Assembly: GCA_050179755.1 (NCBI GenBank)
Contig: JBFXEV010000001.1
Span: forward strand, 361,994 to 425,993
Source of the DNA: Candidatus Babeliales bacterium
GTDB taxonomy: Bacteria; Babelota; Babeliae; Babelales; JBFXEV01
Direction: 5' to 3'
DNA: 64,000 nucleotides
Part shown: one piece after another, positions 40,601-52,600 of the stretch
How the letters are laid out: each line of letters opens with the position of its first letter
How positions within the stretch are numbered: position 1 is the stretch's first letter
Program-made: the position numbers

Positions 40601-43600
40601 TAATGGATTTAACCATCATACGGCCTACTGGCACCGAAACGCGTAGTGTTGTTTGGGTAGATATTGATACTGATGATGTTGGTAACTTTGTAATCAAGCG
40701 GGAGCATGCGCCCATGGTGCTTGCAATTGCTGAGCATAAGCCTATTACCGTATTACTCACCAGTGGCAAACAAGAAACTTTTGCAGTAAAACATGGTGGT
40801 TTTGCTCATATTGAACGGGAGAAGGTTACCTTAATTTTGCATGACCAATTCTAATAATTGCTCATTGCATTCGCAATAAAGTTATTAATTATCTTCTCTG
40901 ACATTTTAAACATCTTGGAATTTGCATGGTACACTACGGACTCTTAAGCATTTTGCTTGTATACCATCGCTCATTACAGCAGGCTCACAACCAATCATTG
41001 TTAATGAAGCTGGTAATTACGATGTGCAAGAAGAAGAAATAACAACTATAGTAATTGACGCTGATTATGTGACCATTAATCTGAAAGATAGCACCATAGA
41101 CGCTCAAGGCGCCGATTCCGGTATAATAAGAGAAGGCCATAAATATATCACCATTAAAAATGGCACTATTAAAAATGCAAGAATAGCAGCCAGTATTGCA
41201 AAGATTGTGAAGAGATAGTAACTGAAAAACTCTCTATAGTAAACAGTGGCGGCTTTCTACATGAACCGTCAAAAGGAGTGTTTATGGTTACAGAATATGG
41301 AGAACTCTTTTTAATAGGGAACGACAAGAACTTTTATCTGCCAAGTTTCTATTTAAACACTTTGGATCAATCCACTAATTATCATATTACTCAGCAATAA
41401 ACAAGAAACATTTGCAGTAAAACATCGCGGGTTTGCTCATATTGAGCGTGAGAAAGTTACCTTAATTTTGCATGATGCCTGAATACCAAACTGAATCAGC
41501 CAGGTTTATGGCGCTTTGTTTTCAGACTCACTGCCTTCTTGATTTCCAGTTTCAATAGCAACTTCATTGATATTTTCGACTTTATTTTCAATAATGGTTT
41601 TAAGATGCTTCCAGCAAACTTCGCTCTCAATCTTTATATATTCACCGCCAAACACTTTAATCTCTTTTATTTTTTGTAAAAATGCCCCAATATCTCTGAG
41701 TGTGGCGGAAGAAGTTCCTACAAGAGAATCTATCTATTTTATCTGCGAGATATACCAAAAAATTGCAAAATCATCACATGAAAAAGAAATTATTATGCCC
41801 TATCCACAAGTGCCTAGTATTTAATTGTTGCCTCAACTTTATGGTTTATTAAGAATTTCCAGAATACCATCCCAACGGGTTTTATATTTCCGCTGCAAAT
41901 TGTTCCATATTGCTTGCGCTTGTTTAGTGTTCATAACAGACAATTTTTTAAACAACCAATCAATATCCCATATACGTATTGTATTGTCATTTGCGGCTGA
42001 AACAAGCTTGTTGTCAGAAGTTGCGCATAATAACTGTACAGTCTTTTCATGACCCTTACAGACTACAAGCTTTTTACCCTGTGTATTCCATACGCATATT
42101 GTACGATCAAAAGATGCTGAAACAATCTTATTATCATGCGTTACACAAACCCTATAAACCACATCTGTATGGCCGTTACACACTGCAAGTTGGTTCCCTT
42201 TAATATCCAGTATGCGCACCGTGTTATCTTGCAAACCTAAGACTATTTTATCATCAGGCGTTATGCATAGTGGCATAACATAACTTTTAGAATCGCTATA
42301 TATACCATATTGATTACCTTGTATATCCCAGATGCATATTGTTTTAGGATTAAACGGTGAAACTATTTTATTTTCTGAGGTTACACATAATGAGTTGACA
42401 GAATTTGTATAACCATTGAACATGGTGCGTTGAGTGCCATCCAGATTCCAAATGCGTACGCTACCATCATCAGAATTTGAAACTATCGTTTTGCCATCTT
42501 GGGTTACACATACGGATGCAATAAATCCTGTATGACCCTCGCATAGCGCACTTTGTACGCCGTTCATATTCCACACACGTACGGTCGTATCACAAGACCC
42601 TGAAATTATCGTTGTATCATCGTCTGTTATACACATTGACTTAATGGCATCGGTATGACCATTACACACAGCGTGTTGAGTGCCATCTATATTCCATATA
42701 CGAATCGTACCATCTCTAGATCCTGAGACAATTTTATTATTACGGGTAATACATATTACATTAACGCAATCCGTATGCCCTCTACATATCGCATGCAGGA
42801 TGCGATCCCTATTCCATATACAAAGCGTGCCATCTTCAGATCCTGAAACTATCATACCATCGTCAGTTATACTTATTGCCCTAACTCGATTTGTATGCTC
42901 ATTGCGTATAACGCCACCTTGCTTACCATGCATCGGGCCCAAAATACAAACCATTTGATTTGCAATAATAAGGTTTCGAATTTCTGGAGGCAAGCTAGCA
43001 ATTTTATCAAAAGGAATCTTTTTAACATTCATTTCTTTTGCAGCATCAATTGTCAATGCTAATTCCAAAAGAAGTGGAATATCCAAATAATTTGCTGCTA
43101 TAATAAAGTCTATAAACGCAACAATATCAAAGGTTTGTATTTTAGCAATAATTTCTTGCTTAATAATATTTTTTTCTTCTTGATGGTCAGGTTGATCTTT
43201 AAATCTGGCAACTAACGGTAATAAGTCGTGAATCTTTTGCCATATAGATGCAGTAATAGTAGGAAGTGGAATTGCGTTATGCACCGTGTCATTTGCTGCA
43301 TCTTCCAGTAAATTCTTGATTGTCTCAGATAATTTTAGAAGCTTATCTGGAACTTTAAAATCTTTGCCATCTTGAGTGGTGATAGTGGAATAATCCTCAC
43401 TTTCCTGAACTGGCTCCATCCGCCGTTGCTCCTCTGGAGCGATGGCGCGATTGATATCACGACATAGCAATGGCGAAGTCGGATCCATCCCAAATGCAGA
43501 GCTTGCTCCGCATACTGCACCAAGTAATAAAATTAGTATATTTTTCTTTAACATGTTATAACCCTTATATCCGAATCAGTTTCAAAACTGAGACGGGTTT

Positions 43601-49600: not shown

Positions 49601-52600
49601 AACTATCTTATTGTCAGGAGTTACGCAGACGCACTTAACCCAATTTGTATGGCCATTGCAAACGCTCAGTTTTTGATTGCCTGCCATATCCCATACTCGC
49701 ACGGTGCGATCTATAGATCCTGAAACTATCTTATTGTCAGGAGTTACACATACTGAGCTAACACTATCTGTATGGCCATTACAAACACTCAGTTGATTAC
49801 CTGCCATATCCCATACGCGCACGGTGTCATCAACAGATCCTGAAACTATCTTATTGTCAGGCGTTACACATACTGAAGTAACCCGATTTGTATGGCCATT
49901 GCAAACACTCAGTTGATTACCTGCCATATCCCATACGCGCACGGTGCCATCACGAGATCCTGAAACTATCTTATTGTCAGGAGTTACACATACTGAAATA
50001 ACGCTACCTGTATAGCCATTACAAACACTCAGCTGATTACCTGCCATATCCCATACTCGCACGGTGCCATCATAAGATCCTGAAACTATCTTATTGTCAG
50101 AACTTACACATACTGATCTAACGACACCTGTATGGCCATTGCAAACGCTCAGCTGAACACCTGGCACAGGTCCTAGTAAACGAGTCATCTGGCCTAACGT
50201 AATGGGATAACGAATTTCCCTTGGCAATGCAGCAATCTGCTCAGAAGTTATATTTTTAATATCAGTTTGTTTTGCAACATCAATTGCCACTTGGAATAAC
50301 AGAGGGATATCCAAATAGTTTACTGCTGTAATAAAATCCATAAGATCGGCACCATCAAATGCTTGTATTTGCGCCTTAATTTGTCGTTTTATAGCTTCTT
50401 TTTCTTGGTGATGACCCACCGGTTGCTCTTCAAAATTCTCTACAAACTGCAATAAGCCTTGAATCTTTTGCCATATAGATGCAGTAATAGTAGGAAGTGG
50501 AATTGCATTATGCACCGTGTCATATGCTGCATCTTCCAGTAAATTCTTGATCGTCTCAGATAGCTTTAAAAGAGTATCTTGAACTGTAAAACTTTTACCA
50601 TCTTGCGTGGTGATAGTTGAATGATCCTTAGATTCTTGGAATTGACTTTCCATTCCAAATGCAGAGCTTGCTCCGCATAATGCACCGAACACTAAAATAA
50701 ATATATGTTTCTTAACCATTATAACCTCCTGGTTTAAATATGCTTTTTTTAGCTATAATCAGTATACCAGAGCAGTGATTTATGTCAAATAGAAAATATT
50801 TGCCAAATTTTACCTTTATTTTTCTCTGTACATGCTACACCCTTTGTTCCTTCTCGTTTTACTACCCCAATCACTAAGGCGTGCTTTTTAACCATTTACG
50901 GCATAAAATAGGTGCCAAAAAAGTACATTTCTTATATAAAATATCCTTGATTTTTGTACATATAGGAGTTATTCTAGGTAAAAGTGCAAGTGTACTACAT
51001 GGGAAGGCTAAATGATGAAAAGACTCATAGATTATTATTTATTAGAATGGAAAAACAAACCAAATCATAAGCCTTTGCTCCTGAGAGGAGCACGCCAAGT
51101 AGGGAAAACCTACGCCGTCCGTACCCTCGCAAAAACATTTGAAAACTATATCGAGCTTAACCTTGAATCAAATACTCTGGCTCGTAAAATTTTGTCTGAA
51201 GACCTAAATATAGAACGAATCCTGTTACAACTCTCTGAATCTTTTGGTCAACTTACTCCTGGCACCACCTTATTGTTTATCGATGAAATTCAACACGTGC
51301 CCCAAGCAATTATTGCACTCAGATATTTTTATGAATTTGTGCCAAACCTTCATGTGATAGCTGCAGGATCTTTACTAGATTTTGCTATCGAAGAAGTTGG
51401 TCTACCTGTGGGCCGTGTAACCATACGCTACATGTATCCATTATCATTTTTAGAATTTTTAGCTGCGTTAGGGCATAGCCATTGGGTTTTGGCTATTATT
51501 TCTGATAAGCCTGTGTTTGAAGAATTACATAAACAAATAATCAATCTTCTGAGCATGTATCTTGCAATCGGAGGCATGCCTGCAGCGGTCAATAATTGGC
51601 AAGAGGCAAAAAATTCACGCGCAGTTAAGGAAACACATACTGAAATTCTCACTGCATATGTAGGCGATTTTAATACCTATGCAAAAAAACACCAGCAAAA
51701 ATACCTCTCGCTTATTTTTGATAGAGCTATGCAACAACTTGCTAGAAAATTTATGTTCGCTCGCATAGGGGAATATAAAAAACGAGAACTGGAACCGGCG
51801 CTTTTATTGCTTGAAAAGGCTGGTATCATATACCCTATTTATGAAAATAGTGGGCAAGGAATCCCACTAGGATCTGATGTAAATTTTGATGATTTCAAAG
51901 TTATTTTTTTGGATATTGGTCTTGCGCAAGCACAGCTAAAATTTGATATATCAAGCTGGCTCATTAACCCTCAAGAAACGATCGTAAATCAAGGTGAACT
52001 TGTTGAAGCTTTTATAGGCCAAGAATTACTTGCCTATTCTGATCCTATCAAAAAAGAACAATTATATTATTGGCGAAAAAAAGTTCGTGGAAGCGATTGC
52101 GAAGTTGATTACCTTACACAATTAGGACAAAAAATTATACCAATCGAAGTTAAATCAGGCAGAAGTACTCGTTTACTCAGCATGCATCGCTTTTTAGAAA
52201 CACATCCAAAATCACCTTATGGCATTCGTTTTTGGGCAAATACTGAAACTAAAGAAGCCTCTCTGCATTCGTTGCCATTATATGCAGTTGCTAAACCATT
52301 TTTAAACGAACAATCTTATTTAAAACAAGCTCTCATGTTTTTAATTACAGATTAATACTATATTCTATAAAACCATCGTTATGCTATGATCGGGGGAAAC
52401 AGGATGCATCGCATTTTAGGCCATATTCTTTCAGGTTCACTCTCAGAAGGCTTCCGCATGCGCATTAGCCCAGATACACCTTTAGAAAGCATAAAAACAG
52501 GCAAATTTGTCTCTATAAGGAGTGGTAATAATACCTTCTTTTCTTTAATCACTGACCTGGAACTGGCAGTCACCCACCCAGATATTCTCTTATTTCCCCC

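Follow-up and report, generated by a model that had tools for sequence, protein, structure and literature searches.

In a genome of Candidatus Babeliales, five tandem genes (S1 to S5) encode proteins in which a signal-like N-terminus is followed by a homologue of the POZ half of eukaryotic Skp1 and a directly fused WD40 propeller, without an F-box. We put the probability at roughly one half that these proteins and two paralogs encoded elsewhere in the genome are exported single-chain substrate receptors of a cullin-RING ligase in a protist host. The genes belong to a family that spans the phylum and combines the Skp1-like module with C-terminal domains of WD40, LRR, ankyrin or unknown type. 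Pfam, phmmer and the genome search agree on the architecture, which had been proposed in the initial annotation, and we infer, as the best reading, that the proteins dock on Cul1 after delivery to the host cytosol. If this is true, the protein-degradation machinery of the host is probably redirected by a host-dependent bacterium. In the literature, we found neither a report of a bacterial Skp1 mimic nor a description of the family.

Gene array and genomic context

The window, i.e. the whole stretch of DNA that was analysed, comprises 64,000 nucleotides of a single 1.525 Mb contig, and the array occupies its positions 41839-50719 with open reading frames of 545-607 amino acids, each including a signal-like N-terminus, a Skp1_POZ match and a WD40 propeller (Table 1). 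On one side of the array lie atpD/atpC, and on the other bacterial ATPase genes. When the single-contig genome was searched in six frames, seven Skp1_POZ matches were over the cut-off, namely S1 to S5 and two at contig positions 682573-685905, and these are the same seven paralogs that had been counted earlier. Additionally, an eighth, sub-threshold match (19.1 bits) resides in a 473-residue LRR protein of the same genome.

The genes share parts to varying degrees. In the DNA of the signal-like N-terminus, S1 and S2 are 100% identical, a 22-residue insert ahead of the Skp1-like domain is common to S3 and S1, and the tail DNA of S4 is 98% identical to that of S2, while the tail of S5 is longer and carries a duplicated segment. 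The candidate promoter upstream of S5, a consensus match, consists of TTGACA, 16 nt and TATACT (11 of 12 matches), with TG preceding the second hexamer.

Table 1. Features of the gene array, with positions counted along the window.
Feature	Positions	Strand	Description
S1	41839..43554	-	571 aa; ORF, Skp1_POZ E 3.3e-10, WD40; signal-like N-terminus, Skp1-like domain, diverged propeller (8 blade hits), without C-terminal hydrophobic helix
S2	43642..45279	-	545 aa; ORF, Pfam, AlphaFold2 model; signal-like N-terminus, Skp1-like domain, 7 near-identical blades, 3-helix tail, C-terminal hydrophobic helix
S3	45368..47191	-	607 aa; build as S2, 8 blades
S4	47279..48919	-	546 aa; build as S2, 7 blades
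S5	49007..50719	-	570 aa; build as S2, 7 blades; first gene of the array
Spacers between genes	43555..43641, 45280-45367, 47192-47278, 48920-49006	-	four, 87-88 nt, nearly identical
Best sigma-70-like site of the region	50761..50788	-	upstream of S5; consensus match only
Signal-like N-terminus of S2	45211..45279	-	residues 1-23
Skp1-like domain of S2	44713..45183	-	residues 33-189; Pfam, phmmer, model, fold searches
120-nt array of S2 (blades)	43888..44721	-	6.9 copies, 87% matches
120-nt array of S3	45624..46562	-	7.8 copies, 89% matches
120-nt array of S4	47525..48356	-	6.9 copies, 87% matches
120-nt array of S5	49325..50163	-	7.0 copies, 85% matches
Three helices after S2 propeller	43789..43881	-	residues 467-497, confidently modelled
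C-terminal hydrophobic helix of S2	43663..43737	-	residues ~515-539; pLDDT <50

Skp1-like domain

All five N-terminal parts match Skp1_POZ with 37.3-40.5 bits (E 3.1e-10 to 3.2e-9), over the Pfam cut-off of 21.9 bits, and a phmmer search with residues 1-190 of S2 found 30 distinct Skp1 sequences in the PDB at E<=0.01, which bears out the Skp1 homology claimed at the outset. The best of these matches were 9o4k_D (7.3e-9) and 2p1m_A (8.6e-9), the latter covering residues 8-133 of the 160 residues of ASK1. The domain of S2 was modelled with high confidence (pLDDT 91.0, pTM 0.87) as three strands and eight helices, and all 50 PDB matches listed by Foldseek for this model were Skp1 entries (best E 6.7e-7, 25% identity). 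VIA, a fold search independent of Foldseek, also placed Skp1 first, with 1ldk_D at Z 13.0 (rmsd 4.0 Å, 116 residues aligned), 6fe8_C at Z 12.8 and 9o4k_D at Z 12.6, closely followed by the BTB/3-box part of SPOP (Z 11.2) and Elongin C (Z 11.0). Pfam BTB had no match at E<=1 on the proteins of the window. The domain is thus a homologue of the POZ half of eukaryotic Skp1 in particular.

Pfam detected no F-box, either at E<=1 in the N-terminal parts or at E<=10 in the linkers and post-propeller tails. The proteins had been described as lacking the C-terminal F-box-binding helices of Skp1, and this holds for the sequence, which is not recognisable as PF01466, but not for the fold, since two helices are modelled at the place of the last two of Skp1, which we take to be H7 and H8. 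In the model, the F-box-binding region thus appears diverged in sequence rather than deleted. Conservation within the family is highest in helix H5, at the residues of the hydrophobic patch (A-x-N-Y-L-D-I). The A-x-N-Y-L motif was considered as a Cul1 contact, which was not borne out, as Asn108 of human Skp1 sits within the partner-binding hydrophobic patch according to one paper.

WD40 propeller and its variable positions

All of S1 to S5 match WD40 (PF00400) with 155-229 bits, and Tandem Repeats Finder resolved four arrays with a period of 120 nt (6.9-7.8 copies, 85-89% matches). The DNA of the 40-residue blades is 87% identical in S2 to S5. Blades that differ at only four or five positions, as annotated initially, roughly describe S2 to S5, but not S1, S6 and S7, where the blades have diverged (mean blade identity 0.42 in S1 and 0.47 in S6, with too few blades detected in S7 for a score). 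Over 27 of the 29 blades, with two out-of-register S2 blades dropped, entropy was at least 1 bit at six positions (9, 10, 12, 18, 27 and 29), four of which take 7-10 residue types. By the strand assignment of the model, five of the six belong to top-face loops: positions 9, 10 and 12 fall into the d-a loop and the first part of strand a, and the b-c turn holds 27 and 29. The ratio pN/pS was 1.58 at the variable positions versus 0.18 elsewhere, and homologous blade positions are also variable in a genome from another family of the phylum (G104). The propeller probably recognises its targets with the top face, and diversifying selection there would equip the paralogs for numerous or shifting targets.

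An AlphaFold2 model of S2 residues 24-545, based on a 33-sequence alignment, had pLDDT 89.5 and pTM 0.80, with 28 strands forming seven blades. Among solved structures, the propeller came closest to the prokaryotic repetitive WD40 proteins 2ymu_A (Z 47.5) and 5yzv_B (Z 43.1), and F-box-WD40 chains were absent among the 50 matches listed for the whole model, which speaks against a ligase receptor.

Tail, signal-like N-terminus and export

The three helices following the propeller of S2 gave no Pfam match, and they carry a Q-A-x-x-I-W-x-x-L-Q consensus common to the WD40 members of the family. The C-terminal hydrophobic helix earlier ascribed to four proteins was found in S2 to S5 and is missing from S1. 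In a hydropathy test with a threshold of 1.8, S2 and S4 pass, S3 and S5 lie just below at 1.51, and no other protein of the family was found to have such a helix.

Signal-like N-termini were assessed with crude predictors, which were passed by 101 of 108 family proteins versus 534 of 923 background ORFs in a lax version and by 68 versus 249 in a strict one; the enrichment is modest because such N-termini are common in the proteome. For export, the genome encodes two secretins and two T2SSE-type ATPases, and the T4SS markers VirB4 and VirD4 were not found in it. A T2SS is reported as the sole secretion system found in Babela, a cultured member of the phylum, and Chromulinavorax reportedly has signal peptides on 44% of its CDS and 78% of its ankyrin proteins and replicates in the host cytoplasm.

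Distribution across the phylum

Among 261 genomes from the phylum, 46 contain Skp1_POZ (45 over the cut-off), nearly always after a signal-like N-terminus and joined to WD40, LRR or ankyrin repeats. The 100 ORFs from 45 other genomes include 49 with WD40, 7 with a weaker propeller signal, 14 with LRR, 3 with ankyrin repeats, one with Peptidase_M48 and 26 without any further Pfam domain; these fusion partners are of the classes used by F-box proteins. A genome of the same genus (G121) has 12 matches, including nine tandem ones. Many further members of the same build came from an exhaustive profile search. The family is consequently far wider than the three contig sets and about 15 genomes to which it had been confined.

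PF01466, the F-box-binding half of Skp1, was over the cut-off in none of the 261 genomes, so that the sequences suggest that the POZ half alone has been retained across the phylum. Generic BTB was over the cut-off in five genomes. F-box-like proteins were found in 59 of the 261 genomes at E<=0.001 (39 over the cut-off), and neither F-box nor cullin was detected in the genome carrying the array (96% completeness), so that the module lacks a partner of bacterial origin there.

Proposed function and alternatives

The POZ half of Skp1 binds Cul1, and its C-terminal helices the F-box, as Schulman in 2000 and Zheng in 2002 reportedly described. We propose that a Sec signal would bring the proteins to the periplasm, from where T2SS-type machinery or outer-membrane vesicles may release them beside or into the host cytoplasm. 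There, the Skp1-like POZ module would bind the N-terminal domain of host Cul1, replacing host Skp1, and the top face of the propeller would capture host proteins to be ubiquitinated by the Cul1-Rbx1-E2 arm. Recombination would swap the near-identical blades, with diversifying selection presumably acting at five top-face positions per blade. In an SCF-type complex, the C-terminal helix of Skp1 is reported to lie wedged between F-box and substrate-binding domain, and by analogy a fused receptor domain would sit roughly as in SCF. Docking on Cul1 is strengthened by the phylum-wide span of WD40, LRR and ankyrin fusions of the same module, by the retention of the POZ half without PF01466, and by the presence of T2SS-type export parts in a genome without T4SS markers.

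The same Skp1 homology would equally serve a decoy, in which the module binds host Cul1 without ubiquitination, or Skp1 clients such as F-box proteins and RAVE-type partners, and the propeller merely localises or tethers the protein, so that host SCF activity is blocked and not redirected. The conservation of the H5 patch, with Asn108 of the human protein in the partner-binding surface, fits such a role, and a precedent is on record from Legionella, where an F-box protein binds Skp1 but forms no active ligase. Still, the F-box-binding half is unrecognisable in all 261 genomes, and pure sequestration accounts neither for the diversifying selection on the top face nor for the swapping of partner domains between WD40, LRR and ankyrin repeats; we regard a decoy as unlikely.

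Unlikely, too, is a role in the bacterial envelope, in which the Skp1-like fold is a BTB-type scaffold or oligomerisation module without any link to ubiquitin, and the proteins remain periplasmic or surface-bound, with variable propellers that take host surface molecules or products of competitors as ligands. If the Sec signal is cleaved, the C-terminal helix would by default leave S2 to S5 anchored in the inner membrane and facing the periplasm, and both the prokaryotic relatives of the propeller and the widespread signal-like N-termini suit this explanation. It is countered by the lack of the C-terminal helix in the other family proteins and the sub-threshold values of S3 and S5; further, it gives no reason for a Skp1-specific POZ in 45 genomes while generic BTB is rare, and the F-box-like proteins of the phylum are sensible only within a eukaryotic cell.

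Recruitment of host Cul3 or another cullin, with the module acting like the BTB of BTB-Kelch proteins or SPOP, would agree with the rule that Cul3 adaptors combine adaptor and receptor in one piece, and besides SPOP, KLHL22 (Z 10.6) and the vaccinia A55 BTB-BACK/Cul3 structure (Z 9.4) align with most of the model. The identity to BTB chains is 9-10% versus 20-25% to Skp1, and the Pfam and Foldseek results point to Skp1 and not to BTB, which makes this distinctly improbable. Finally, mis-assembly of the repeats or the attachment of eukaryotic DNA to a bacterial contig is hardly credible: short-read contigs of three runs with the locus do break up within the repeats, which leaves the order and number of blades without independent confirmation, but the array sits among bacterial genes within one contig, 146 of 150, 107 of 111 and 105 of 110 run contigs are at least 99% identical to the window, X1 and X2 cover every bin of the stretch, and the family recurs in G121 and 44 other genomes.

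Comparison with known systems

The propeller alone (model residues ~160-445) resembles 2ymu (rmsd 1.4 Å, 281 residues aligned, 33% identity) and the WD40 protein 5yzv of Thermomonospora curvata (35% identity). The variable positions of the S2 to S5 blades are laid out as in fungal HET-E/HET-D/NWD proteins, for which highly similar WD repeats, unit exchange and positive selection on the top face have been described, the selection acting on two residue pairs that surround a conserved residue, within the d-a loop and b-c turn. Contrary to what had been suggested, a cassette-like hypervariable propeller is therefore not new in itself, although in the fungi the repeats come after a NACHT NTPase, in cytoplasmic receptors for self and non-self, and here they follow a Skp1-like module in a bacterial protein that is probably exported.

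BTB-Cul3 adaptors (SPOP, KLHL/BTB-Kelch and poxvirus BTB-Kelch proteins such as vaccinia A55; Z 9.4-11.2) follow a similar logic, with a BTB-fold module for cullin docking and the propeller receptor on a single chain, but the proteins studied here have a Skp1-type sequence, WD40 instead of Kelch and no identified BACK. With the eukaryotic pair of Skp1 and an F-box-WD40 protein (beta-TrCP, Fbw7/Cdc4), they share a Skp1-fold module and a 7-8-bladed WD40 propeller; unlike this pair, they are bacterially encoded single polypeptides with a predicted Sec-type signal, no detected F-box and no recognisable F-box-binding sequence. Bacterial F-box effectors (Legionella AnkB and LegU1, Agrobacterium VirF, Ralstonia RipG) also join a eukaryotic CRL1 component to a repeat domain and reportedly hijack host SCF, and the CRL-adaptor mimics listed in an October 2026 review are F-box proteins only. 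Those effectors travel by T3SS or T4SS, as opposed to the Sec signal and T2SS-type parts predicted here, and they mimic the F-box protein and need host Skp1, whereas S1 to S5, without an F-box, mimic Skp1 itself.

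Organisation of the tandem array

The five Skp1-WD40 fusion genes of the window (S1–S5) are arranged head-to-tail as open reading frames of 545–607 aa, separated by nearly identical spacers of 87–88 nt, and the top sigma-70-like site of the region, which is a consensus match only (11/12 matches), lies upstream of S5. The genome consists of one contig of 1.525 Mb and is 96% complete. Across it, a six-frame search gave eight Skp1_POZ matches, of which seven were over the cut-off, namely S1–S5 and two further paralogs located elsewhere, S6 and S7. Additionally, a weaker candidate, S8, features a signal-like N-terminus, a sub-threshold Skp1_POZ match of 16.5–19.1 bits, LRR_8 over the cut-off and hydrophobic C-terminal segments, and may represent a Skp1-like-LRR family member in this genome.

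The array is flanked by atpD/atpC on one side; on the other lies an AAA_14-DUF4143 gene, with a HerA-like ATPase gene after it. The two paralogous DUF4143 genes bracket the array region and, together with the HerA-like ATPase, may mark a recombination-prone or mobile neighbourhood. At the array locus, three DNA runs of one study, labelled as landfill metagenome, were also compared; no differences or indels between samples were listed in these runs, in which the contigs are fragmented inside the repeats, and no RNA run with the locus was listed. The two contig joints, whose shorter side comprises only 24 letters, look like repeat artefacts.

Features of the array, its neighbourhood and related loci. 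Positions are those of the window unless a contig or a locus (L) of a phylum genome (G; G000 is this genome) is named.
Feature	Position	Strand	Remarks
DUF4143-only fragment	38095-39024	+	309 aa; just past atpD/atpC
S1	41839-43554	-	ORF
S2	43642-45279	-	ORF, 545 aa
S3	45368-47191	-	ORF, 607 aa
S4	47279-48919	-	ORF
S5	49007-50719	-	ORF; first gene in transcription direction
Intact AAA_14-DUF4143 gene	51012-52355	+	447 aa; adjoins S5
HerA-like DUF87 ATPase	52386-54017		after AAA_14-DUF4143 gene
S6 and S7	contig 682573-685905		further paralogs
S8 candidate	G000 contig 1097791-1099212 (L008:373-1791:-)	-	473 aa; sub-threshold Skp1_POZ
Short Skp1-like protein	L082:981-1463 (G217)	+	
Short Skp1-like protein	L033:274-675 (G032)	-	
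Short Skp1-like protein	L080:94-555 (G202)	-	

The N-terminal Skp1-like domain

Skp1_POZ matches all five N-terminal parts with 37.3–40.5 bits (cut-off 21.9), and it was the only significant Pfam match when these parts were scanned alone. A phmmer search of S2 residues 1–190 against PDB sequences recovered 30 distinct Skp1 sequences at E<=0.01 (best 7e-9), with Arabidopsis ASK1 aligned over its residues 8–133 of 160. Family members were also aligned with the canonical Skp1 sequences that the profile search had brought up. Four columns do not vary, namely Ser in A-K-x-S, the second Pro in P-L-P, and both Ala and Leu in A-x-N-Y-L; Phe in D-G-x-x-F and Asn in N-Y-L hardly vary. An assignment of A-N-Y-L to the Cul1 face was set aside, one literature passage arguing against it.

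The domain modelled alone with AlphaFold2 (alignment of 106 sequences) reached a pLDDT of 91.0 and a pTM of 0.87, with three strands and eight helices, which we take to be the same count and order of elements as in Skp1 itself. All 50 PDB matches listed by Foldseek for this part are Skp1 entries (best E 6.7e-7, 25% identity). Likewise, a fold search independent of Foldseek placed the Skp1 chain 1ldk_D on top (Z 13.0, rmsd 4.0 A, 116 residues aligned), followed by yeast Skp1 (Z 12.8) and ASK1 (Z 12.6).

The correspondence in sequence is limited to the first half of Skp1. PF01466, the C-terminal, F-box-binding half, gave no match on the N-terminal parts of S1–S5 at E<=1, and the domain model holds two helices at the place of the PF01466 helices in Skp1. 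PF01466 had no match in this genome and was over the cut-off in 0 of the 261 genomes of the phylum, while Skp1_POZ was so in 45 of them, and the region following helix H6 is thus helical but has lost its resemblance to Skp1 in sequence.

The propeller and its hypervariable blades

Pfam WD40 scores on S1–S5 range from 155 to 229 bits. The AlphaFold2 model of S2 residues 24–545, based on 33 family sequences (pLDDT 89.5, pTM 0.80), comprises an alpha/beta N-terminal domain, 28 strands forming seven blades, three confident post-propeller helices and a low-confidence C-terminal helix. The alignments from a whole-model fold search are confined to the propeller (model residues of about 152–445). The nearest solved propeller is 2ymu_A, a 'highly repetitive propeller' from a prokaryote (Z 47.5 and rmsd 1.4 A over 281 aligned residues, 33% identity), the other nearest structures being designer proteins derived from 2ymu and a Thermomonospora WD40 domain; no F-box-WD40 chains occur among the 50 matches listed.

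In S2–S5, the blades are units of 40 residues (seven in S2, S4 and S5, and eight in S3), encoded by arrays with a 120-nt period according to TRF, whereas the blades of S1, S6 and S7 are ordinary and diverged. Blade identity averages 0.79–0.86 in S2–S5, and at the DNA level the mean is 87% over 351 pairs from 27 blades, two of the 29, both in S2, having been left out as out of register. Counting from L-S-V-C, six blade positions have an entropy of at least 1 bit (9, 10, 12, 18, 27 and 29), and pN/pS is 1.58 at these positions compared with 0.18 at the other 30. The strands of the model assign positions 9, 10 and 12 to the d-a loop and the beginning of strand a, and positions 27 and 29 to the b-c turn, regions that together form the top face in the standard geometry of WD40 propellers. 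Position 18 (P/S/A) is located in the a-b loop on the opposite face. Self-similar blades with a mean identity of at least 0.70 are also present in five other genomes of the phylum (G104, G241, G226, G103 and G121), and in G104, which belongs to another family, the variable blade positions are the homologous ones.

The paralogs are also mosaics of one another: S1 and S2 have 100% identical signal-peptide DNA with Skp1 parts 78% identical, S1 and S3 have in common a 22-residue insert with 97% DNA identity, and S2 and S4 have tails with 98% identity. Such mosaicism points to recombination among the copies.

Occurrence across the phylum

In the initial annotation, a protein search had shown the family in three contig sets of this lineage only. 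The six-frame HMM search of the 261 phylum genomes gave a wider range: at E<=0.001, Skp1_POZ was found in 46 of them, 45 with a match over the cut-off. These genomes represent 29 of 145 genera, and none of 14 control genomes had a match. When the Skp1 part was used in a word-indexed search covering proteins of 299–954 aa only, it yielded 12 proteins from four contig sets, close to the earlier result. In one genome of the same genus (G121), there are 12 Skp1_POZ matches, nine of them in a single tandem array.

From the 45 genomes other than this one, 100 open reading frames with an over-cut-off match were collected as the family set. A WD40 propeller was recognised in 49 of these, 28 through a local blade HMM (at least three blades) and 21 more through Pfam WD40 over the cut-off, and a further seven had weaker propeller matches only. 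Leucine-rich repeats were found in 14, ankyrin repeats in three, and in one (L068:196-1554:-, from G184) a Peptidase_M48 (E 8e-9), which is not a repeat domain. The 26 without a further Pfam domain include seven cut by a contig end. Short proteins of 134–161 aa, made of hardly more than a signal-like N-terminus plus the Skp1-like domain, also occur. One of them lies directly upstream of a Skp1-WD40 gene, and they could be exported Skp1 mimics that act on their own.

When 1.84 billion representatives were searched exhaustively with the profile, 11,521 matched at E<=0.001, most of which are expected to be eukaryotic Skp1. Among the 146 newly listed best matches, 84 are at least 300 aa long, and 55 of the 84 have a signal-like N-terminus by the lax test described below. 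Some metagenomic representatives of this signal type hold two to five Skp1-like stretches per protein, such as the top profile match, P0013 (778 aa, three stretches, E 2.9e-68). In a FastTree phylogeny of 106 family domains with 23 short 'canonical' sequences, the two labels changed only twice (shuffled mean 21.5; 0 of 500 shuffles as low). The tree, built from 139 columns, with weak support, many long branches and at least one 'canonical' sequence (P0101) that is really a truncated family member, hints at a common origin.

Absence of F-box and cullin genes

F-box families of Pfam gave no match on the N-terminal parts of S1–S5 at E<=1 and none in the linker or the post-propeller tails at E<=10; PF12937 and PF00646 are missing from the whole genome, which also has no cullin genes. 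Two elements were considered as a vestigial F-box and rejected, both having no Pfam match to it at E<=10: the L-P-x-E-I helix after the Skp1 core, which aligns with the C-terminal region of Skp1 itself, and the three post-propeller helices.

In the survey of phylum genomes, F-box-like matches were likewise missing from the genus of the window. A genome of the same order (G024) has 25 of them on its contig C1, which amounts to an expanded classical F-box route. F-box-like and Skp1_POZ matches occur together in 16 genomes, a plain count in which related genomes are not independent, and there is no sign of mutual exclusion.

Proposed function and alternatives

In SCF ligases, the half of Skp1 retained here binds Cul1 and the other half binds F-box proteins. 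The most economical reading of the family is a one-piece receptor for host Cul1, since the Cul1-binding half has been kept and the F-box-binding half has diverged, the module is fused to the kinds of repeats that F-box proteins use, the bacterium has neither F-box nor cullin, and diversifying selection acts on the recognition face of the propeller. According to a published description of an SCF-type complex, the F-box and the substrate-binding domain have the C-terminal helix of Skp1 inserted between them, which makes a receptor fused at that end geometrically reasonable. In the proposed mechanism, the Skp1-derived module would plug straight into host Cul1 and would be paired with interchangeable recognition domains (WD40, LRR or ankyrin), and the WD40 blades would diversify through cassette exchange and hypervariation of the top face, much like immune receptors. 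Taken together, we give a probability of roughly 0.35 to the reading that this phylum of protist parasites holds a modular toolkit of single-chain SCF receptors, a natural library of degraders that bypass host Skp1 and F-box proteins.

Acting as a decoy or inhibitor, the proteins would draw on the same Skp1 homology, and the diversified recognition face speaks for the receptor; we consider this alternative unlikely.

Nearly all family members have a basic and then hydrophobic N-terminus directly ahead of the Skp1-like domain. By crude hydropathy, the lax signal test was passed by 101 of 108 family proteins and by 534 of 923 background ORFs (those of this genome of at least 200 aa), and the strict test by 68 and 249, respectively, so that a signal-like N-terminus seems enriched in the family, yet common across this proteome. 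Such commonness agrees with Chromulinavorax, a cultured member of the phylum, for which the published account reports signal peptides on 44% of CDS and 78% of ankyrin proteins, as well as replication in the host cytoplasm and shedding of vesicles. Export genes in this genome include two secretins and two T2SSE-type ATPases, with no VirB4 or VirD4; in Babela, a type II system is reported as the sole secretion system identified. In 80 of the 101 lax-passing proteins, a Met and a polar residue (often A-M-E or A-M-D) follow within a few residues after the hydrophobic segment, for example at 45211–45279 of the window and in loci L028–L101, which gives the impression of a signal peptide placed before an original start codon.

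A second alternative, that the proteins are binders held in the envelope, would be favoured by the hydrophobic C-terminal helix, which passes a hydropathy threshold of 1.8 in S2 and S4 and lies just below it (1.51) in S3 and S5. No other family protein passes this threshold; the helix is a local addition to this array, and we hold the envelope-bound alternative to be quite unlikely. The tail of S5 (window 49007–49300) additionally has a duplicated short segment ahead of the helix, V-E-P-x-N-L and then R-A-A-V twice, which is missing from S2–S4. A PEP-CTERM-like or similar C-terminal sorting signal is not supported, as none of the tails was matched by NCBIfam at E<=1.

Finally, a Cul3-type adaptor is improbable. 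BTB-Cul3 adaptors do resemble the Skp1-like domain in fold (Z 9.4–11.2): in the Foldseek-independent search, Skp1 is followed by the SPOP BTB/3-box (Z 11.2, aligned with model residues 1–156), then by Elongin C (Z 11.0) and by numerous BTB domains. With Z scores this close, the fold alone separates Skp1 from BTB by no wide margin, but sequence does separate them, as identity is 20–25% to Skp1 and 9–10% to long BTB/3-box chains. Pfam BTB (PF00651) matched neither the N-terminal parts of S1–S5 (E<=1) nor anything in the genome (E<=0.001).

Comparison with known systems

In open-access papers and preprints, supplements aside, we found no description of a bacterial Skp1 mimic. The Babela paper has Skp1 in its reference list only, and the Babela and Chromulinavorax supplements might list members under other names. 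An October 2026 review of ubiquitin-system effectors from bacteria names F-box proteins as the only cullin-RING ligase adaptors and leaves BTB unmentioned. All bacterial hijackers of these ligases named in the literature found imitate the F-box protein and depend on host Skp1. If the proposed receptor reading is true, a large family imitating Skp1 and equipped with its own receptor domain would constitute a second, independent route into SCF, in which the F-box becomes dispensable once adaptor and receptor are fused. Fused adaptor-receptor designs are what protein engineers seek in degrader constructs, and the family provides testable candidates for host control by little-studied intracellular bacteria.

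The hypervariable repeat propeller is, in itself, a known kind of object, and the new element is the fusion of the Skp1 module and its spread through a bacterial phylum. In the fungal HET-E/NWD repeats, the published description places the variable codons on the propeller top, under positive selection and concerted evolution, where codons 7 and 9 (d-a loop) and 25 and 27 (b-c turn) each flank a conserved residue. The hypervariable layout and the near-identical units are the same in the blades of S2–S5; the fungal proteins, however, carry an N-terminal NACHT/STAND NTPase, which S1–S5 do not, Skp1_POZ being their sole significant N-terminal Pfam match. If the proposed reading holds, the recombining propellers described here would be a bacterial counterpart of the HET-E/NWD recognition repertoires.
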